This document shows positions 2,071 through 27,590 of a stretch of 64,000 bases of DNA, piece by piece. The position numbers were made by a program, and so were the translations under genes. The notes under the pieces are model-generated. The model did not search any database and had not been told where the DNA came from. It saw only the letters and a program-made list of their open reading frames with translations. How positions within the stretch are numbered: the first letter of the stretch is position 1; every line of letters begins with the position of its first letter. Origin of the DNA: a virus; the UHGV virus genome UHGV-2113617. One strand, written 5' to 3'.

Positions 2071-3636
2071 ATGACTATCAAAACTAAAGCTGAACTTTTG
2101 AACAAATGGAAGCCATTACTGGAAGGTGAAGGTTTACCGGAAATTGCTAATAGCAAACAAGCGATTATCGCTAAAATCTTTGAAAACCAGGAAAAAGATT
2201 TCCAGACAGCTCCAGAGTACAAAGACGAAAAAATCGCTCAGGCATTTGGTTCTTTCTTAACAGAAGCTGAAATCGGTGGTGACCACGGTTACAACGCTAC
2301 TAACATCGCTGCAGGTCAGACTTCTGGCGCAGTAACTCAGATTGGCCCAGCTGTTATGGGTATGGTACGTCGTGCTATTCCTAACCTGATTGCTTTCGAT
2401 ATTTGCGGTGTTCAGCCGATGAACAGCCCGACTGGTCAGGTATTCGCACTGCGCGCAGTATATGGTAAAGACCCAATCGCTGCCGATGCTAAAGAAGCAT
2501 TCCACCCAATGTATGGTCCAGATGCAATGTTCTCTGGTCAGGGTGCTGCTAAGAAATTCACTGCTTTAACTGCTGGCGCTACTACTGTCAAAGGTGACAT
2601 CTATACTTACTTCTTCCAGGAAACTGGTACTGTATATCTGCAAGCTTCCGCTGTAGTAACAATTAGTTCAAGCGCCGATGACGCAGCTAAATTAGACGCC
2701 GAAGTTAAAAAACAAATGGAAGCTGGTGCACTGGTAGAAATCGCTGAAGGTATGGCTACTTCTATCGCTGAACTTCAGGAAGGTTTCAACGGTTCTACCG
2801 ATAACCCATGGAATGAAATGGGCTTCCGTATCGATAAACAAGTTATCGAAGCTAAATCTCGCCAGCTGAAAGCTGCTTACTCTATCGAATTAGCACAAGA
2901 CCTCCGCGCTGTTCACGGTATGGATGCTGATGCTGAACTGTCTGGTATTCTGGCTACCGAAATCATGTTGGAAATCAACCGCGAAGTTGTTGATTGGATT
3001 AACTACTCAGCTCAGGTTGGTAAATCTGGTATGACCCTGACTCCGGGTTCTAAAGCTGGTGTATTTGACTTCCAGGATCCGATTGATATTCGTGGTGCTC
3101 GCTGGGCGGGTGAATCCTTTAAAGCTCTGTTGTTCCAGATTGACAAAGAAGCAGTTGAAATTGCTCGTCAGACTGGTCGTGGTGAAGGTAACTTCATTAT
3201 CGCTTCCCGTAACGTAGTTAACGTTCTGGCTTCAGTTGATACTGGCATTTCTTATGCTGCACAGGGTCTGGCTACCGGCTTTAACACTGATACTACCAAG
3301 TCAGTATTTGCTGGTGTTCTGGGTGGTAAATACCGTGTATATATCGACCAGTATGCTAAACAGGATTATTTCACTGTAGGTTATAAAGGTCCGAACGAAA
3401 TGGATGCTGGTATTTACTATGCTCCATATGTAGCTCTGACTCCGCTGCGTGGTTCCGATCCGAAGAACTTCCAACCAGTAATGGGATTCAAAACTCGTTA
3501 CGGTATCGGTATCAACCCATTCGCAGAATCCGCTGCTCAGGCTCCGGCTTCTCGCATCCAGAGCGGTATGCCTTCTATTCTGAATAGCCTTGGTAAAAAC
3601 GCTTACTTTAGACGTGTATATGTTAAAGGTATCTAA
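2071..3636 (+). CDS. 23: major capsid protein gp23
   Basis: 521 aa, N-terminus MTIKTKAELLNKWKPLLEGEG matches my recollection of T4 gp23; head-gene context. Confidence 0.95.
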   Translation: MTIKTKAELLNKWKPLLEGEGLPEIANSKQAIIAKIFENQEKDFQTAPEYKDEKIAQAFGSFLTEAEIGGDHGYNATNIAAGQTSGAVTQIGPAVMGMVRRAIPNLIAFDICGVQPMNSPTGQVFALRAVYGKDPIAADAKEAFHPMYGPDAMFSGQGAAKKFTALTAGATTVKGDIYTYFFQETGTVYLQASAVVTISSSADDAAKLDAEVKKQMEAGALVEIAEGMATSIAELQEGFNGSTDNPWNEMGFRIDKQVIEAKSRQLKAAYSIELAQDLRAVHGMDADAELSGILATEIMLEINREVVDWINYSAQVGKSGMTLTPGSKAGVFDFQDPIDIRGARWAGESFKALLFQIDKEAVEIARQTGRGEGNFIIASRNVVNVLASVDTGISYAAQGLATGFNTDTTKSVFAGVLGGKYRVYIDQYAKQDYFTVGYKGPNEMDAGIYYAPYVALTPLRGSDPKNFQPVMGFKTRYGIGINPFAESAAQAPASRIQSGMPSILNSLGKNAYFRRVYVKGI

Positions 3637-3662
3637 TCTTTGACGATAGAAACGCAATTTTA

Positions 3663-3692
3663 GGGAACCTTCGGGTTCCCTTTTTCTATTTT
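3663..3692 (+). terminator. intrinsic terminator after gene 23
   Basis: GGGAACC-TTCG-GGTTCCC hairpin followed by TTTTTCTATTTT. Confidence 0.75.
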
Positions 3693-4387
3693 ATACGATA
3701 GCAATCAGGCATATCATCCGCATTTATCCAATTGCGAATAGTTTTAGGACTAACTTTAAAATGCTCCGCTGCGTAATCAGGATTATCAAATTTGACACCC
3801 TTTATACATATTGGAATAAATTTTTTAATACCGCTAAGTTTTTCAGAAATAGCTTTACGATGTGAAATCGATATAGGTTTATTTTTTCGTGGATGAACAT
3901 GTGTTTTATAATATTCATTGCGCCCTTTAACTCGCTTCGCGATAGTTTCATCAGATTGCTTAACGCCTGTTTTTGCCTTTGATATTTTTCGTTTAGCTTC
4001 CACAGTCATTCCTTCTTTTGTTCGTATTGATAACATATTACGATATGAAGGATCTTGCAAATGAACTATAACTGGATTTCCTCTACCACCAATAGCAGCA
4101 TTATAAGTATCAGTTCTCATAACGAATTCCTCATTGACTAGTAAAGCTTCCATTTTATACATCTCCTCAGATGAGGAGAAAGAATAAAGAATTTCTTTTT
4201 TAAAGTTATGAATACCATATTTTTTGATGGATTTTTTGATGTTTACGCCAGAACCCATATAACCATCGTTTTCGTCAAGAGTAGCATGAGCTCCGATGTA
4301 AATTTTTCCATTGATGATATTAGTAATTTGATATATTAAATATTTCATTTTAAACACCACTCCATTTGTATATGAATATAATATCAT
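3686..4387 (-). CDS. segD: GIY-YIG homing endonuclease (SegD-like) between genes 23 and 24
   Basis: 233 aa; N-terminal KYLIYQITNIINGKIYIGAH GIY-YIG motif; free-standing between 23 and 24 as T4 segD. Confidence 0.7.
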   Translation of the reverse strand: MILYSYTNGVVFKMKYLIYQITNIINGKIYIGAHATLDENDGYMGSGVNIKKSIKKYGIHNFKKEILYSFSSSEEMYKMEALLVNEEFVMRTDTYNAAIGGRGNPVIVHLQDPSYRNMLSIRTKEGMTVEAKRKISKAKTGVKQSDETIAKRVKGRNEYYKTHVHPRKNKPISISHRKAISEKLSGIKKFIPICIKGVKFDNPDYAAEHFKVSPKTIRNWINADDMPDCYRIK

Positions 4388-4412
4388 ATTACTTTGGTCT
4401 TGTAAATAACTT

Positions 4413-4420
4413 TATAAATA
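4413..4420 (+). promoter_or_regulatory. late promoter (TATAAATA) for gene 24
   Basis: Exact TATAAATA about 28 nt upstream of the gp24 ATG. Confidence 0.7.
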
Positions 4421-4447
4421 GTATTATATTTCAACAAGGAAAATACA

Positions 4448-5731
4448 ATGGCTAAAATCAACGAACTTCTGCGCGAATCAACCACAACGAATAGCAACTC
4501 AATCGGTCGCCCAAATCTCGTTGCTTTGACTCGCGCTACCACTAAATTAATATATTCTGACATTGTAGCAACGCAAAGAACTAATCAACCTGTTGCTGCT
4601 TTTTATGGTATCAAATACCTTAATCCAGATAACGAATTTACTTTTAAAACTGGTGCTACTTACGCTGGCGAAGCTGGGTATGTAGACCGAGAACAAATCA
4701 CAGAATTAACAGAAGAGTCTAAATTAACTCTCAATAAAGGCGATTTATTCAAATATAATAATATCGTTTATAAAGTATTAGAAGATACACCATTTGCTAC
4801 CATTGAAGAAAGCGATTTAGAATTAGCTCTTCAGATTGCAATTGTTCTTTTAAAGGTTCGTCTATTTTCTGACGCAGCGTCAACGAGCAAATTTGAAAGC
4901 TCTGATAGCGAAATTGCGGATGCTAGATTCCAGATTAATAAATGGCAAACCGCAGTTAAATCTCGTAAACTTAAAACTGGCATCACAGTTGAATTAGCAC
5001 AAGATTTAGAAGCAAATGGATTCGATGCTCCTAATTTCTTGGAAGATTTGCTTGCAACTGAAATGGCGGATGAAATCAATAAAGATATTCTACAGTCTTT
5101 GATTACAGTATCAAAACGCTATAAAGTTACAGGAATTACTGATACTGGATTCATTGATTTGAGTTATGCATCTGCACCTGAAGCTGGTCGTTCATTATAC
5201 CGAATGGTATGTGAAATGGTTTCACATATCCAAAAAGAATCAACTTATACAGCAACGTTCTGTGTTGCTTCAGCTCGTGCCGCTGCGATTCTTGCTGCAT
5301 CAGGTTGGTTAAAACATAAACCAGAAGATGATAAATATCTTTCACAAAATGCCTACGGATTCTTAGCTAATGGTTTACCGCTTTATTGCGATACTAACAG
5401 CCCATTAGATTATGTAATCGTTGGCGTGGTAGAAAATATTGGCGAAAAAGAAATTGTTGGATCAATTTTCTATGCTCCGTATACAGAAGGTCTTGACTTA
5501 GATGACCCTGAACATGTAGGTGCATTTAAAGTTGTAGTTGATCCAGAAAGTTTGCAGCCATCTATCGGTTTATTAGTTAGATATGCTTTATCTGCAAATC
5601 CTTATACTGTAGCAAAAGATGAAAAAGAAGCAAGAATAATTGATGGTGGAGACATGGATAAAATGGCGGGTCGTTCAGATTTGTCTGTTTTATTAGGTGT
5701 TAAGCTACCAAAAATTATCGTTGATGAATAA
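4448..5731 (+). CDS. 24: capsid vertex protein gp24
   Basis: 427 aa, same as T4 gp24; gp23-like fold expected; preceded by late promoter. Confidence 0.9.
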   Translation: MAKINELLRESTTTNSNSIGRPNLVALTRATTKLIYSDIVATQRTNQPVAAFYGIKYLNPDNEFTFKTGATYAGEAGYVDREQITELTEESKLTLNKGDLFKYNNIVYKVLEDTPFATIEESDLELALQIAIVLLKVRLFSDAASTSKFESSDSEIADARFQINKWQTAVKSRKLKTGITVELAQDLEANGFDAPNFLEDLLATEMADEINKDILQSLITVSKRYKVTGITDTGFIDLSYASAPEAGRSLYRMVCEMVSHIQKESTYTATFCVASARAAAILAASGWLKHKPEDDKYLSQNAYGFLANGLPLYCDTNSPLDYVIVGVVENIGEKEIVGSIFYAPYTEGLDLDDPEHVGAFKVVVDPESLQPSIGLLVRYALSANPYTVAKDEKEARIIDGGDMDKMAGRSDLSVLLGVKLPKIIVDE

Positions 5732-20229: not shown

Positions 20230-20233
20230 CAAT

Positions 20234-20263
20234 GGGGACCTTTCGGTCCCCATGTTTTTATTT
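20234..20263 (+). terminator. intrinsic terminator after gene 54
   Basis: GGGGACC-TTTC-GGTCCCC hairpin followed by ATGTTTTTATTT. Confidence 0.75.
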
Positions 20264-20548
20264 ACGGAATGAAATAAAAGCAGCAACTGAAGCAACTAAA
20301 CTGTCTTCAATATAAACTTCAATTTTTACCGGAGCTTCTGACTCAAATTTACCTGTTACTACACCTTGGAAAATGCTTTCAGTCTGTTCTGGCTTTGAAA
20401 AATTTTCAGAAGGAAAAATTCCGAACTTTTTATCTGTTCCAAAAATTTTGATAAATTCATCATAAACTGCTTCATTAAAAGCGTTATCAGCAGGAATAAC
20501 GCCTTCAACTACAAGTTCTTGACCTAAAAAGCGCAAAGAAGATTTCAT
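20258..20548 (-). CDS. hypothetical protein (alt.-3-like position)
   Basis: 96 aa ORF with SD GAGGA 8 nt upstream. Confidence 0.5.
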   Translation of the reverse strand: MKSSLRFLGQELVVEGVIPADNAFNEAVYDEFIKIFGTDKKFGIFPSENFSKPEQTESIFQGVVTGKFESEAPVKIEVYIEDSLVASVAAFISFRK

Positions 20549-20579: not shown

Positions 20580-20609
20580 ATTATAACACAACACGAGGGA
20601 CTTGTAAAC
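20580..20609 (-). promoter_or_regulatory. early promoter (GTTTAC -35, 18 nt spacer, TATAAT -10)
   Basis: Minus strand GTTTAC(20604-20609)...TATAAT(20580-20585); part of a ~50 bp module repeated at 35143..35195. Confidence 0.55.
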
Positions 20610-22666
20610 TACATCTTGAACTTTTTAGACATTCCGTTGATGTTAACCAAAGAAGCCAAGATTTGAGAAACTTCGTTTTCCTCTTCTTTTGATTCTTCTA
20701 CAAGGAATTGGTTAAATCCAGTCATTGGACGAACTTCACCAGTTTCCATTAGATGGTCGCCATCATATACCGATTCTTCTAATTGTTCAGAAGGAGGAAC
20801 GATTGTGCCTTCGATTAGATACTTGTTATAAGCAGTTTCTTTCATCATGTACGTACTCACTTTATTAATCTTCAGCAAAATTCCACGTGGTAAAATAACT
20901 TCAGCTTCTGATGGAAATCCTGATAAATGACCTGGAACGATAACTTTAATTCGCTCAGCCCCTTTAATTACCATACCTACGCTAGTTTCAGCATCTTCAT
21001 TCGCATAAGCAGAGTGACTGCCCATATGCATCAAATCTTCTGCGTCAACTGAACCTTCTCCTTCACCAGAAAATACTGCACCGGAATCATCTAGAGCCAT
21101 ATAGTTTTTACCATACTCACCGAAGATATTTGGTTTAAGCGATGTAGATACGAAGTTCTTGAAGTAGAACATTTTATTTTCAATATTATGACGTAAAGTT
21201 TTAAAGGTAACTTCTTGCCCACGATAAAGTGTAGTTCCTGGAGGAAGAACTGATCCTTTGGCAAAGGCAGAATCCATTGTCTCGATGTGTTTAATAGCTC
21301 GTTCCATATATTCTTCACGGGTAGAATCCGGTTTACCTAAAAGGAACGAGTTCATTTCAACATATGAATCTGCACAATAATCTTCAATTACATCAGACTC
21401 AGCCTGAGTTAATCCTTTTGGAGTTACTTCAGTACTTGCATATTCATACGCTTGAGAAGCAGACTCATTAATCAATTTATAAACGCCATTCATGACAAAT
21501 TGAACAATAGCTACCTTTTCATCTGGCGTGGCTTTAGAACCTTTAACTAAATCATTGATAATTTTCTTAATAACATCAAAGCTATTAGAAATATTAATGT
21601 CAGCAAGATCACTTAAAATTTTATCAGTTTTATAATCAAAAAATTCTTTATTCTTTAAATATTCTTGAGAACCTTGATATGTTATATCGCTCTGTAACTT
21701 GATAGATGGATCACGTAAACGTGCATGAGCCAATGCAATATGATTTCGGAAGCTTTCTAGTTCATAATCGCTAGATTTAAAACGAGAAGCGCTTCTCATA
21801 CCACCGATAGCTCCTTTGCTGAAGTTTGAACCAACCTGAATAACGCCAGAGTTCATTGGTCCTTCTGCTTTATATACCGGAACTTTAGATTCAAACTCTT
21901 GATATTTCTTAGCAGCGAAGCTATCACCCTGAAGTGAAGCATCGACAGTAGAATATTGAGCTTGTGCTGCTAATCGACGACTAATTTTAGTTTTCTGAAT
22001 AACAGCTTGATCCATACGCTTATCATTTTCTAAAGCGATAGAAGCAGCAACAGCGACAGCTTTAGGAACAGCATTACCTGTTTTAACATCTACATAAACA
22101 TCACCAACCTTTGATTCAACTTTTGTGAATAACTCAGTTGAAATAGGAGGTACACCTGGAATGTCTTCTAAATTGGCATTTTTACGGTAAACCATAATAT
22201 ATGCATATTTCTTATCATAGTCCCAGATTTCCTTTAAAAGAACATATCGACCTGCTCCTTTAGTACGCACTAAACGATCGGCAATAACTTGCATTTGACG
22301 AGCTGCACCGTTTGTTTTACTCTTTAGTACGCGGAATAAGCATGCGTCAATTTTGTACTGTTTCATTGTCTGAAGAGCAGTATCAAAAACCGCATTAATG
22401 ACACCAATTGGATTTCCACCCAAGTTTTTAAGTTTAACTAATGATAGTTTCTCATTAACACCTATCATTACGATATGCATCATTTTATCGCCTGGCTTAA
22501 CGTTTTTATTTGTATCACCGCCAGAGGTGTATGTACAAAATCTAAATCCAGGAAGCACGCTTTCTTCACCGGCTTGAATAGCAAAAATTTGAGGTATTTT
22601 ATGCTTAGGATTTAAGTTAACAACCGGCGCCGAAGCGCCGTCAAATAATTCTGTAATAAGTTCCAT
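20609..22666 (-). CDS. Alt-family ADP-ribosyltransferase paralog (downstream copy)
   Basis: 685 aa; N-terminus near-identical to upstream paralog; R-S-EXE-type motifs (YRGQ, FVSTSL, SEAEVILPRG). Confidence 0.8.
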   Translation of the reverse strand: MELITELFDGASAPVVNLNPKHKIPQIFAIQAGEESVLPGFRFCTYTSGGDTNKNVKPGDKMMHIVMIGVNEKLSLVKLKNLGGNPIGVINAVFDTALQTMKQYKIDACLFRVLKSKTNGAARQMQVIADRLVRTKGAGRYVLLKEIWDYDKKYAYIMVYRKNANLEDIPGVPPISTELFTKVESKVGDVYVDVKTGNAVPKAVAVAASIALENDKRMDQAVIQKTKISRRLAAQAQYSTVDASLQGDSFAAKKYQEFESKVPVYKAEGPMNSGVIQVGSNFSKGAIGGMRSASRFKSSDYELESFRNHIALAHARLRDPSIKLQSDITYQGSQEYLKNKEFFDYKTDKILSDLADINISNSFDVIKKIINDLVKGSKATPDEKVAIVQFVMNGVYKLINESASQAYEYASTEVTPKGLTQAESDVIEDYCADSYVEMNSFLLGKPDSTREEYMERAIKHIETMDSAFAKGSVLPPGTTLYRGQEVTFKTLRHNIENKMFYFKNFVSTSLKPNIFGEYGKNYMALDDSGAVFSGEGEGSVDAEDLMHMGSHSAYANEDAETSVGMVIKGAERIKVIVPGHLSGFPSEAEVILPRGILLKINKVSTYMMKETAYNKYLIEGTIVPPSEQLEESVYDGDHLMETGEVRPMTGFNQFLVEESKEEENEVSQILASLVNINGMSKKFKM

Positions 22667-22669
22667 GAT

Positions 22670-24766
22670 TTATCCTTGAACGAACTTGTAAGGCATGTTT
22701 GTAATATCTATGCAAGACGCAATAATTCCGAGAGATGATTCTACTTTCTGTTTAACATTTGATGAAACAAATGATGCAAAGTCAACTTTGTCTTCTATTT
22801 CAATATCATCTATCATTGCAACTACTTCACCAGTTTCCATTAGACGGTCACCGTCATAAATTACTGATTCGGTGAGTTCTTCCGTAGTCATAACTTCAGC
22901 TTGAATGAGTTTTGTATTATTAGATGTTGTTCCGTCATTATTAGAAGCATCAGTTATTTTATTAACTTTGACCATCAATCCGCGCGGTAGAATAACTTCA
23001 GCTTCTGTTGCTATTCCGAGATTTCCTGGATATACAACATTAACTTTATGAGCTCCATCAATAGCCCATCCTATTTGAACTTTAACGTATTCAGGATTTT
23101 CTTTATACGCTCTTATTTCGTTTGGATTAATAGTTATTCCTTCTTCATTTTTATCAACTGTTAATTCATTACGAGCTTCTGGTTCTAAAAGACCGATACC
23201 AGCATGTGTAATTCCAAAACGCCCAAAAATGATAGGAGTTAAAGAAGTAGATACAAAATTTCTGAAATAGAACACTTTATTTTTAACTAGCGCTTCGTAT
23301 ATAGGAGCAGTCATACTTTGAGCACGATAAACTGTAATGCCTTCTGGTATACGGTCACCATTTTCAAAAGCTGAATCTAAATTATTTATCGCAGATTCAA
23401 TTTCTTTTTCACTCATTACATCATATCGTTCTGGATTGTAGCGGCCTAAAAGAAGATTATTGATGTCAGTATATCCTGATCCACAATATTCTCTAATGCC
23501 GCGCTTTTGTGATGGAGTATATTTAGAACCATCACGGGCAATAGTAATATCAATCATTGGACCTGCACCAATTCCAGAAAAACTATAAATCATTCGTTTG
23601 AGGAATTTAGTTTTTGCTGCGTTCCAGGAATTTTTAGTTATTTCTTCCCAGACTTCATCTGGCTGCCCTTTACGAGTTTTATTATGTCTATCAAGCCAAT
23701 TATCTTTATATTCTTCAAAGAATTTATTAACAGCTGCTGCGTATTTCTCTAAACATTTTATTGAAGTAGTTGGTTCATTTTTAATCGCATTAAGAATTAC
23801 ATCTTTAATTTTTTCAGAAACTTCATTAACCTCACTTTTTGAAAAGAATTTATAGTCATAGTGAAGTTCATCTGCGGTTCCTTCAGCAATAATTTTTGCT
23901 GCCTTAGTTTTAGAAGCTAATGAATTAATTCCAAGCTTCATTTCTTCTGCTTCTGGAATTAAAGGAGCAGTAGCAGGTTTATTGAAATTAGCTGCAGTAG
24001 ATTCATACTTCTGGAATAATTCGCTTTCAAATCTAGAAGATTCTAATGATTGACTTTGCGCAATTGCTCTACGGGAAATTTTAACTTTAACGATTACAGC
24101 TTGGTCAGAACGTTTATCATTTTCTTGCGCAATAGATGCTGCAATCGCCTCATTTTTAGTTACTTGAGCTCCGGTATCTTTATTGATATAAACATCGCCG
24201 ACTTTCGATTCAACTTTAGTAAAGAGCTCGGTACTAATTTCCGGAACTCCTGGAATGTCTTCTAGTGATACATTTTTGCGATGTATAAGAATATATGCAT
24301 ACTTTTTATCATAATCCCAGAGTTCCTTAAGAAGGACGTATCTGCCACCTGAACGACTACGGATAAGTCTATCAGCAATAACTTGAATTTGTCGAGCTTG
24401 ACCGGCAGTTTTAGACTTAAGAATACGAAGCATACAAGCATCAATTTTATACTGACGCATTGTTTGCATTGCAACAGTAAAAACCGAATTGATATAATTA
24501 ATTGGGCTTGGACCAAGACCTTTCAATTTAGCAATTGAACCTTTAGCGGTTAATGTAAAAGGAACAATATGCATCATTTTATCGCCCATCTTTAAATCAC
24601 GATTAGTATCACCTCCAGATGTATAAGTACATAAACGAAAGCCTGGTTGTTCAATTGCATCATCAACATGAACTGAAAAAATTTGCGGTATTTTCTTCTT
24701 TGGATTTAAGTTTGTAATCGGAAGAGTAGTATCTTCGTCAAATAATTCTGTAATTAGTTCCATCAT
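22670..24766 (-). CDS. alt: Alt ADP-ribosyltransferase (packaged, late-expressed)
   Basis: 698 aa; ART motifs (YRAQ, FVSTSL, TEAEVILPRG); late promoter TATAAATA just upstream. Confidence 0.8.
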   Translation of the reverse strand: MMELITELFDEDTTLPITNLNPKKKIPQIFSVHVDDAIEQPGFRLCTYTSGGDTNRDLKMGDKMMHIVPFTLTAKGSIAKLKGLGPSPINYINSVFTVAMQTMRQYKIDACMLRILKSKTAGQARQIQVIADRLIRSRSGGRYVLLKELWDYDKKYAYILIHRKNVSLEDIPGVPEISTELFTKVESKVGDVYINKDTGAQVTKNEAIAASIAQENDKRSDQAVIVKVKISRRAIAQSQSLESSRFESELFQKYESTAANFNKPATAPLIPEAEEMKLGINSLASKTKAAKIIAEGTADELHYDYKFFSKSEVNEVSEKIKDVILNAIKNEPTTSIKCLEKYAAAVNKFFEEYKDNWLDRHNKTRKGQPDEVWEEITKNSWNAAKTKFLKRMIYSFSGIGAGPMIDITIARDGSKYTPSQKRGIREYCGSGYTDINNLLLGRYNPERYDVMSEKEIESAINNLDSAFENGDRIPEGITVYRAQSMTAPIYEALVKNKVFYFRNFVSTSLTPIIFGRFGITHAGIGLLEPEARNELTVDKNEEGITINPNEIRAYKENPEYVKVQIGWAIDGAHKVNVVYPGNLGIATEAEVILPRGLMVKVNKITDASNNDGTTSNNTKLIQAEVMTTEELTESVIYDGDRLMETGEVVAMIDDIEIEDKVDFASFVSSNVKQKVESSLGIIASCIDITNMPYKFVQG

Positions 24767-24786
24767 ATCCTCTCTAGTGTTTATTC

Positions 24787-24794
24787 TATTTATA
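24787..24794 (-). promoter_or_regulatory. late promoter (TATAAATA) for alt
   Basis: TATAAATA on minus strand about 20 nt upstream of the alt ATG. Confidence 0.65.
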
Positions 24795-24800
24795 AAATTA

Positions 24801-24816
24801 AAGGCCCGAAGGCCTT
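24801..24816 (-). terminator. GC hairpin between gene 30 cluster and alt
   Basis: AAGGCC-CGAA-GGCCTT hairpin followed on minus strand by T-rich TAATTTTATAAATA. Confidence 0.4.
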
Positions 24817-25004
24817 TAGTAATCTAGTGGTAAGAGAGTACGATATATTTCAAACTTTGGTCCTTTTTCATAGGCATCAAATGTTTCTGTAAATTTATTA
24901 TAAGCATATGCATCTACAAATTCGAGAATGACTTGTGATACAGAAGTAGAAACATCTCCACCTTCTTTTTGAGCTACGACAATTGTTTCTAAGTAAGCTT
25001 TCAT
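24816..25004 (-). CDS. hypothetical small protein
   Basis: 62 aa ORF, start overlaps ligase stop. Confidence 0.45.
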   Translation of the reverse strand: MKAYLETIVVAQKEGGDVSTSVSQVILEFVDAYAYNKFTETFDAYEKGPKFEIYRTLLPLDY

Positions 25005-26461: not shown

Positions 26462-26727
26462 TGTTCATCCTTCAGAGTTTGATTTACATTTCTATTATAA
26501 ATCAATTCATCATTAAGCTCAGGCAAAGACTTATGATATGTAGTTCTAACTTTATTTCCTTGCATCCAGTGCTTGACGTAAATGAAACCTTGCTCTACAC
26601 ATTTTTTAAAAATTCGTTCATCCTTTTGAGCACGGAACTCTGGATTACATCTAAAAAATTGATTTACGTGACCGTAATCACGTGTAGTATTACCTTCATT
26701 TTCATAAATAGTGTGAACAACAAACAT
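26458..26727 (-). CDS. hypothetical protein (30.1-like)
   Basis: 89 aa ORF translationally coupled to neighbours. Confidence 0.5.
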   Translation of the reverse strand: MFVVHTIYENEGNTTRDYGHVNQFFRCNPEFRAQKDERIFKKCVEQGFIYVKHWMQGNKVRTTYHKSLPELNDELIYNRNVNQTLKDEQ

Positions 26728-27590
26728 TAGAATGCTCCTTGGAAAATATTATCACCACTAGTAAGTCTATTAAAATACCCTGCGTCGCCAGGCTTAGTAT
26801 AACTCCACGTATGGAATGGATTCATATGATACGGGTGTGTATAATATGGATTATATGGATGCGTATAATATGGATTATAAGGATTAAATCCAGGAGTTCT
26901 CCAGGTTGTATTCCAACGAAAAGAATCGTTTTTAACCATCTTCTCAATCACATCTTTTATAGCTTTTTCACTATCAAAACTTTCTTTATTTTCCTTCGGT
27001 GAAAAAAGCTTATTTTCTACATCATTCCATGTATAAACTCGCTGAGCAGTTTTTGGAATATTATCACGCTCCCCTCGAGCCATCCAATAAACAGGAACAT
27101 TTAATATTTCACTCGCATGATCGCAGTGATGAGCGAGATCGTCAATATAACAAATTACGTTATATTTCTCTTTTGCCTTTTTGAACAGCTCTTCTTTTGA
27201 AGAATCATGACCACACATCATTACTTCTGAGAAGGCACTAGGAAAAAGAGCATTCAAATTAAACTGACGATTCAACAGAGCGTCAATAGAATCACCCAAT
27301 GCTGTAACAGCTACAAAATTATAATCTTCTTTTAATTTGTTAATTACACACAGGGCATCTTTATACGGAGACAAGTAACGAATAAAATCTGAACGATTGT
27401 ATTTTTCAATTAACTTGACGCCAAGTTCTTCATCACAATTAAAGAGTTTACCTGGAGAAATAAATTTCTCATCTTGGATCATTTTTAAAATATGTTCTAA
27501 CGGAAGATTATATTTCTGAGCAAAATAAGGAAGGCCTGATTGCCAGCTTAAACATACTCCATCAATATCAGTTAAAATAGTAGGCTTCAT
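26727..27590 (-). CDS. HAD-superfamily phosphatase (5'-nucleotidase-like) with C-terminal Tyr/Pro-rich repeat
   Basis: 287 aa; N-terminal DIDGV motif typical of HAD/5'(3')-deoxyribonucleotidase; C-terminal YNPYYTHPYNPYYTHPY. Confidence 0.6.
   Translation of the reverse strand: MKPTILTDIDGVCLSWQSGLPYFAQKYNLPLEHILKMIQDEKFISPGKLFNCDEELGVKLIEKYNRSDFIRYLSPYKDALCVINKLKEDYNFVAVTALGDSIDALLNRQFNLNALFPSAFSEVMMCGHDSSKEELFKKAKEKYNVICYIDDLAHHCDHASEILNVPVYWMARGERDNIPKTAQRVYTWNDVENKLFSPKENKESFDSEKAIKDVIEKMVKNDSFRWNTTWRTPGFNPYNPYYTHPYNPYYTHPYHMNPFHTWSYTKPGDAGYFNRLTSGDNIFQGAF
26834..26885 (-). repeat. short tandem repeat (~24 nt x2) encoding YNPYYTHP
   Basis: gtataatatggattata... repeated in the DNA. Confidence 0.6.

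Follow-up and report, generated by a model that had tools for sequence, protein, structure and literature searches.

Two adjacent genes of the Alt family of ADP-ribosyltransferases (ARTs) were identified in the UHGV virus genome UHGV-2113617, of which a stretch of 64,000 nucleotides (nt), hereafter the window, was analysed. T4 Alt (gpAlt, NP_049811), after which the family is named here, is a head-packaged mono-ADP-ribosyltransferase that modifies the alpha subunit of RNA polymerase (Arg265) and other host proteins. The two genes lie in the alt region that is conserved in Tequatrovirus, the T-even phages. By sequence comparison, the upstream gene (AltA) is the orthologue of T4 Alt, with a different effector allele on the same N-terminal domain (N-domain), and the downstream gene (AltB) is the intact form of a gene left in T4 as the stumps alt.-1 and alt.-2. 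The intact pair is usual among T4-like coliphages: most of them have it, T2 and T6 included, and T4 is the exception; the lineage-specific event is a loss in T4, not a gain in the window phage. The two-gene arrangement is real and had been correctly identified in the initial annotation, and it is already known, the duplication of alt having been noted in print in 2006 (PMC1524935) and 2014 (PMC4177764). The evidence as a whole is probably best explained if AltA and AltB are late-made, packaged, gp21-trimmed and injected arginine ARTs, with different host targets.

Two enzymes with a common plan and divergent effector regions

All window coordinates refer to the whole 64,000-nt stretch, and the alt pair lies on its minus strand (Table 1). 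The list of open reading frames (ORFs) contained two co-oriented ORFs, one at 22670..24766, with 698 aa if counted from its first ATG, and one of 685 aa at 20609..22666; 3 nt (22667-22669, ATC) separate them. Their assignment to the Alt family in the initial annotation was borne out by PF03496 (ADPrib_exo_Tox; AltA 3.4e-37, AltB 2.3e-20) and by phrog_802 (Alt-like RNA polymerase ADP-ribosyltransferase), which matched AltA over residues 1-696 (2.6e-271) and AltB over residues 1-685 (8.5e-255). Searches of NCBIfam and PADLOC returned no match. The AltA ORF opens with ATG-ATG (24761-24766); the spacing from a GAGG Shine-Dalgarno sequence is better for the second ATG, at 24763, and this is also the annotated alt start in the T2, T6, NBG2 and T4 records. 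Therefore, AltA most likely has 697 aa. The same ATG-ATG stands at the start of alt in T4 (L001 9501-9506), and the doubling may be the cause of two mismatches in the literature, i.e., a propeptide of 6 versus 7 residues, and E577 versus E576 as the catalytic Glu.

Both proteins have a four-part plan, comprising the alpha/beta N-domain of PF26846, an all-helical central domain of ~170 residues, an ART domain of the C2/C3 type with R-S-E motifs, and a poorly ordered tail. The PF26846 (Tevenvirinae_ADPRT) assignment was precomputed for cluster representatives at least 97% identical to these proteins, and for the same genes on a metagenome contig (L010, described below). AlphaFold2 models of the two proteins, based on a 72-sequence family alignment, had mean predicted local distance difference test scores of 80.5 and 81.3 and a similar layout, with an N-domain to residue ~195, linker helices, a central domain at ~250-410, an ART domain at ~415-625 and a low-confidence tail. 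The AltA model was matched by Foldseek to Vis, CDTa, Ia and C3, and the catalytic Arg and Glu-x-Glu of AltA aligned with those of CdtA.

The catalytic motifs were located at R480, S505-T-S507 and E587-A-E589 in AltA, and at R482, S507-T-S509 and E587-A-E589 in AltB. The columns of the R, the S-T-S and both Glu were invariant or nearly so in the 72-sequence alignment, so that the R-S-EXE motifs reported in the initial annotation were upheld for both copies, neither of which has lost the catalytic Glu. Within the ADP-ribosylating turn-turn (ARTT) motif, Glu-x-Glu, and not Gln-x-Glu, marks the arginine-specific enzymes of the R-S-E clade; E-x-E is likewise the arginine-specific form in the actin-modifying binary toxins and Vis. 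Because both have E-x-E rather than Q-x-E, AltA and AltB should modify arginine. The E577A mutant of T4 Alt is inactive (PMC11404850), and this residue would correspond to the second Glu of ExE if its number counts from the earlier ATG of the pair.

End to end, AltA and AltB were 41% identical (BLASTP, E = 2e-157), and identity varied greatly by domain, being 68% over residues 1-238, 12% over residues 239-415, 32% in the catalytic domain and 44% in the tail. The N-termini, which had been called near-identical, were therefore similar but not nearly identical over the whole domain, the peptides first quoted being conserved islands. It had also been claimed that the central and C-terminal regions differ; this held most of all for the central domain and for the substrate-facing part of the ART domain (the segment from STS to ExE was only 6-15% identical). 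The central domains of the family fell into at least three sequence classes, which accounted for 48, 15 and 5 of the 72 sequences, and a profile-profile comparison of the AltA class with the AltB class gave a 4.5% probability of homology.

Loss of the second gene in T4 and the history of the pair

AltA was 70% identical to T4 Alt overall, with values of 100% for the N-domain, 33% for the central domain, 65% for the ART domain and 90% for the tail. T4 has no second full-length gene; alt.-1 (61 aa) and alt.-2 (67 aa) stand in its place. AltB residues 1-56 matched alt.-1 at 95% identity and residues 62-116 matched alt.-2 at 98%, but the identity of the two stumps to either Alt was just 56-62%. 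The initial annotation had proposed a comparison with T4, where two full-length copies would have made the pair standard architecture. A second full-length copy was indeed absent from T4, but alt.-1 and alt.-2 proved to be the same gene in decayed form; since the pair was found in T2, T6 and ~400 genomes, the lineage-specific duplication that had been implied was not sustained.

The T4 gene differs from AltB through a -1 frameshift in a run of five A residues and a deletion flanked by short direct repeats (Table 1). The metagenome contig L010 (ERZ28665598 scaffold_183, 2819-4875) had the T4 frameshift (A5 to A4) and a linked substitution, without the deletion, which shows that the T4 state arose stepwise from an intact gene. 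Its second Alt gene consisted of a 61-aa ORF and a 624-aa ORF with overlapping stop and start, and the cluster of the 624-aa protein (P0005) had 36 members. The deletion in T4, of 1.7 kb, is of the microhomology type. Database notes on the locus are misleading, because they describe the same full-length paralogue, decayed in T4: the T4 record NC_000866 (L001 7066-7451) labels alt.-1/alt.-2 'an old duplication of the first part of gene alt', and the T6 record MH550421 (L007 3302-5359) labels the intact gene 'apparent insertion in alt.-2'. Since T4 does without AltB, the gene would be dispensable on laboratory E. coli.

Many deposited Tequatrovirus genomes matched the region at 97-98% DNA identity, and their records list 'Alt-like RNA polymerase ADP-ribosyltransferase (x2)'. 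The AltB portion missing from T4 occurred at 95% protein identity or more in ~402 phage records, and the T4-type deletion junction was contiguous in ~91. Maps of T6 and T2 contained the same pair of 2094 nt and 2058 nt with a 3-nt spacer. The same synteny was observed in JS98 (Dhakavirus), where the genes are annotated alta and altb, and in Citrobacter phage Ursula; a single Alt gene was present in Klebsiella phage KPV15 and Acinetobacter phage PhT2.

The upstream Alt of Tequatrovirus occurred as discrete alleles, of which the T4-type has 682 aa and the T2/T6-type 697 aa (L001 7455-9503 versus window 22670-24763). The T4-type allele was also seen next to an intact AltB, e.g., in vB_EcoM_G9062, an indication that the effector module has been exchanged independently of the second gene. 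The upstream gene gave the appearance of hypervariability, with more than 100 apparent clusters; this was rejected, as 101 of these were 96-99.6% identical to T4 Alt and the alleles were few.

Ratios of nonsynonymous to synonymous substitution (dN/dS; Nei-Gojobori method, applied to the window, NBG2, T2 and T6) were 0.027-0.054 for AltB and 0.027-0.063 for AltA, and DNA ligase and gp54 had values in this range as well. Given this strong purifying selection and the intact catalytic residues, AltB is unlikely to be a pseudogene or pseudo-enzyme. Neighbour-joining trees were estimated for the N-domain and for everything downstream of it. In the N-domain tree, AltA and AltB of the window grouped with T4 Alt (bootstrap 94%), and JS98 alta with JS98 altb (100%). 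In the downstream tree, JS98 alta was the partner of AltA, whereas AltB formed a group with JS98 altb and the downstream Ursula gene; each of these groupings had 100% bootstrap. The trees thus disagree by region, and the effector lineages are older than the genera, having split before Tequatrovirus and Dhakavirus diverged, while the N-domain follows the genome in which it resides.

Recent gene conversion was excluded as the origin of the N-domain pattern, since AltA and AltB were only 0.35-0.6 identical at third codon positions, i.e., near saturation, and their longest common DNA word was 21 nt (coding LMETGEV). The pattern may go back to older conversion, to co-adaptation with a common partner, or to phages exchanging effector modules; the last of these is directly seen in the T4-type and T2/T6-type Alt alleles. 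An exhaustive search of 1.84 billion proteins found only 69 representatives of the N-domain family, nearly all of them N-terminal to PF03496. A role as a general delivery module, in the manner of MuF, was therefore unsupported, and the N-domain appears to be Alt-specific and not a general cargo adaptor, as the family is small and nearly always stands ahead of an ART. P0234 (485 aa) and P0235 (541 aa), which carry distant forms of the N-domain, had no Pfam match downstream; an ART that has diverged, or some other effector domain, may be located there.

Expression, packaging and the role of AltB

The gene order was DNA ligase, alt.1, hairpin and late promoter, AltA, AltB, early promoter, alt.-3, terminator and gene 54. 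The late promoter that had been reported ahead of the upstream copy was recovered as a perfect TATAAATA at 24787-24794; between 20500 and 24900, the coding strand has no other perfect copy. The hairpin that precedes it would shield the alt pair against early transcription coming from upstream. The start region of T4 alt has an identical arrangement of hairpin, promoter, Shine-Dalgarno sequence and ATGATG, and T4 alt is late by both transcriptome and proteome (PMC9697503). Neither a MotA-type site nor a perfect late box was found between AltA and AltB. An internal promoter for AltB was also sought and rejected, as the scan gave just chance-level sigma-70 matches, late boxes with one mismatch and one poor MotA-like site. 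With a late promoter upstream and a sigma-70-like promoter directly after the AltB stop, the late unit comprises exactly AltA and AltB. The layout of the gene junction, with a Shine-Dalgarno sequence inside the last codons of AltA (Table 1), suggests translational coupling; we infer that the two genes would be transcribed late as a single, translationally coupled message. The sigma-70-like promoter of alt.-3 (20580-20608) is still present in T4, despite the neighbouring deletion.

T4 Alt is synthesised late, enters the prohead core, is present at ~40 copies per head, is cut at both ends by gp21 and is ejected into the host (PMC9026906, PMC9503650); according to the record X15811, 6 residues are removed. 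The features expected of a head-packaged protein, as the initial annotation had supposed the upstream product to be, were found in both copies at the level of motifs. The propeptide, MELITE, was identical in AltA, AltB and T4 Alt, and Glu6 was invariant in the 72 family sequences, with L/I at P3. Towards the C-terminus, L-x-E631 and L-M-E641 were conserved, and represent [L/I]-x-Glu sites ahead of the disordered tail.

Under the mechanism proposed here, both genes would be expressed from one late message through coupled translation, and both proteins would enter the prohead core by means of their common N-terminal region. The gp21 prohead protease would trim both after Glu6 and at [L/I]-x-E sites near the C-terminus, after which they would be injected with the DNA and would ADP-ribosylate arginine on different host proteins. 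The targets most likely differ, because AltA and AltB are unrelated in their central domains and in the segments from STS to ExE. For AltA, as the orthologue, ADP-ribosylation of RNA polymerase alpha in the manner of T4 Alt is plausible. A more specific proposal can be put forward only tentatively, being rather less than an even prospect: AltB might be injected as a second effector and act on a host target of its own (e.g., a translation, RNA-decay or anti-phage defence protein, and not RNA polymerase alpha), its stepwise loss in the T4 lineage might be part of the reason why T4 is known to behave differently from T2/T6 on wild hosts, and the genome-specific co-variation of the N-domains might reflect a common docking site in the prohead core.

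Several observations weigh against packaging of both proteins as arginine ARTs with different targets. A literature search found no experiment, proteome or paper in which AltB was in virions, cleaved, injected or active, and AltB had no direct match among solved structures by sequence. The case for different targets consists of sequence divergence. The window has 14 copies of TATAAATA, where shuffling would give 9.3 (~1.5x), making a match in itself weak evidence, and with so little enrichment the promoter call depends on position and conservation with T4. Finally, the 624-aa natural allele, which lacks the first 61 residues and is fairly common, persists in its 36-member cluster, so that the AltB gene can tolerate, or drifts towards, loss of the N-terminal propeptide.

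This allele, from which the propeptide is missing, and the lack of proteomic evidence for packaging would both be expected if AltB was made late but stayed in the producing cell, to act there towards the end of infection, e.g., on proteins of the host or the phage. That is quite improbable, given that MELITE is the same as in Alt, that Glu6 is invariant in 72 members, that the C-terminal [L/I]xE sites are conserved, and that the N-domain co-varies with the Alt of its own genome and is essentially confined to the Alt family, always at the N-terminus. It is also unlikely, if not negligibly so, that AltB is redundant with Alt, adding to the injected dose by acting on the substrates of Alt (RNA polymerase alpha among them), such that T4 could lose it without cost. 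Redundancy would account for the shared domain plan, E-x-E motif of the arginine type and operon, and for the absence of AltB from T4 and ~91 other genomes, but not for central domains without detectable homology, nor for STS-to-ExE segments with 6-15% identity. Moreover, the effector lineages remain separate across genera with 100% bootstrap, each with a dN/dS of ~0.05, which is unexpected of a mere dosage duplicate.

T4 Alt has also been described as a core protein (PMC11404850), and the Pfam score of AltB is below that of AltA, as might be the case if AltB was a pseudo-enzyme or a purely structural protein of the head core. Its R482, S507-T-S509 and E587-x-E589 are nevertheless intact, in invariant columns, and purifying selection extends over the whole gene, leaving very little probability to this explanation. 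A recent duplication peculiar to the window phage, which the lack of a full-length second copy in the T4 reference could have indicated, is already refuted: the pair is present in T2, T6, JS98, Ursula and ~400 other records, T4 keeps a remnant of AltB, third-position identity is near saturation with a longest common word of 21 nt, the trees place the split before the genera diverged, and the duplication was noted in both earlier papers (PMC1524935, PMC4177764).

Features of the locus and relationship to known systems

Table 1. Features of the alt region, in window coordinates.
Feature	Position	Strand	Remarks
AltA, orthologue of T4 Alt (by sequence)	22670..24763	-	697 aa from second ATG; first ATG 24766
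AltA N-terminal domain	24044-24763	-	
AltA central helical domain	23528-24043	-	
AltA ART domain	22886-23527	-	
AltA C-terminal tail	22673-22885	-	
Gene junction	22667..22677	-	Shine-Dalgarno AAGGA 22677-22673 within last AltA codons, TAA 22672-22670, ATC 22669-22667, then AltB ATG
AltB, full-length Alt paralogue, intact form of T4 alt.-1 + alt.-2	20609..22666	-	685 aa
AltB N-terminal domain	21950-22666	-	
AltB central helical domain	21422-21949	-	
AltB ART domain	20792-21421	-	
AltB C-terminal tail	20612-20791	-	
A5 run, AAT AAA AAC, codons 53-55 of AltB	22497..22507	-	T4 and L010 minus one A, a -1 frameshift splitting the gene
AltB stretch deleted in T4	20629..22328	-	~1,699 bp, AltB nt ~339-2038; imperfect 9-bp direct repeats CTAAAGAGT/CTAAAAAGT at edges
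Terminator-like hairpin, G+C-rich, with T-run; end of alt.1, just upstream of late promoter	24799..24818	-	8-bp stem TAAAGGCC/GGCCTTTA; also in T4
T4-type late promoter consensus	24787..24794	-	TATAAATA, perfect match
Strong sigma-70-like promoter directly after AltB stop, serving alt.-3	20580..20608	-	TTTACA-17-TATAAT with TG, 11/12 matches
alt.-3 (DUF5498), conserved downstream neighbour, outside the ART pair	20258..20548	-	96 aa; PF17602 1.4e-64; T4 annotation
Bidirectional terminator hairpin between alt.-3 and gene 54	20232..20253	.	

Membership of the T4 Alt family was indicated by the full-length profile with the N-domain typical of the family, the ART fold and motifs, the position between ligase/alt.1 and alt.-3/gene 54 downstream of a late promoter, and the gp21-site motifs. 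AltA shares its position, promoter, propeptide, domain plan, catalytic motifs and an identical N-domain with T4 Alt, and differs in its central (33%) and ART (65%) allele, which is of the 697-aa T2/T6-type and not the 682-aa T4-type. AltB has the same architecture as T4 Alt at 42% identity, but with an unrelated central domain and an ART domain only 32-35% identical. T4 alt.-1 and alt.-2 (NP_049810, NP_049809) are the same gene as AltB, in the same place after alt and with the same 3-nt spacer, but frameshifted and reduced by the 1,699-bp deletion where AltB is intact. The second Alt genes of T2 (BBC14817) and T6 (AXN58232) are positional orthologues of AltB, of the same length and with a dN of ~0.01 relative to the window gene; another is the second Alt of ime09, annotated 'alt.-2', in identical synteny. 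JS98 altb is also a positional orthologue and groups with AltB beyond the N-domain (100% bootstrap), but its effector domains are just 44-63% identical to those of AltB and its N-domain is closer to JS98 alta than to AltB.

Toxins of the C2/C3 type (Vis, C3bot, iota Ia, CDTa, VIP2 and Certhrax) share the catalytic fold and the R/S-T-S/E-x-E motifs with the Alt pair. The binary-toxin components among such enzymes (VIP2/iota Ia/CDTa/C2-I) resemble the pair in their C-terminal R-S-E ART, but have an N-terminal ART-like adaptor domain and a pore-forming B partner, which the pair does not.

Among the neighbouring genes, alt.1 is a 62-aa ORF with a match to Pfam Phage_blade, ending just 5' of the hairpin and late promoter. 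Further away, the gp30.2 homologue (26727-27590, minus strand) contained a 24-nt tandem repeat at 26839-26884 (1.9 copies, 95% match) that doubles the peptide YNPYYTHP; the C-terminus of gp30.2 in T4 differs at this repeat.

The locus itself is a matter of routine annotation. Its wider meaning is that T4 is atypical: most of its relatives encode, and perhaps inject, two Alts, and a view of Alt function taken from T4 may leave out half of what is there. The records of alt.-1/alt.-2 and of the T6 gene are better read as the decay of a full-length gene, of which an intermediate allele is still circulating. In T2 and T6, the second enzyme is intact, strongly conserved, probably injected and, as far as the literature search showed, uncharacterised. 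If the proposal of a second injected effector with its own target is true, the pair would constitute a packaging module for two cargoes, the effector part of which is exchanged between phages.

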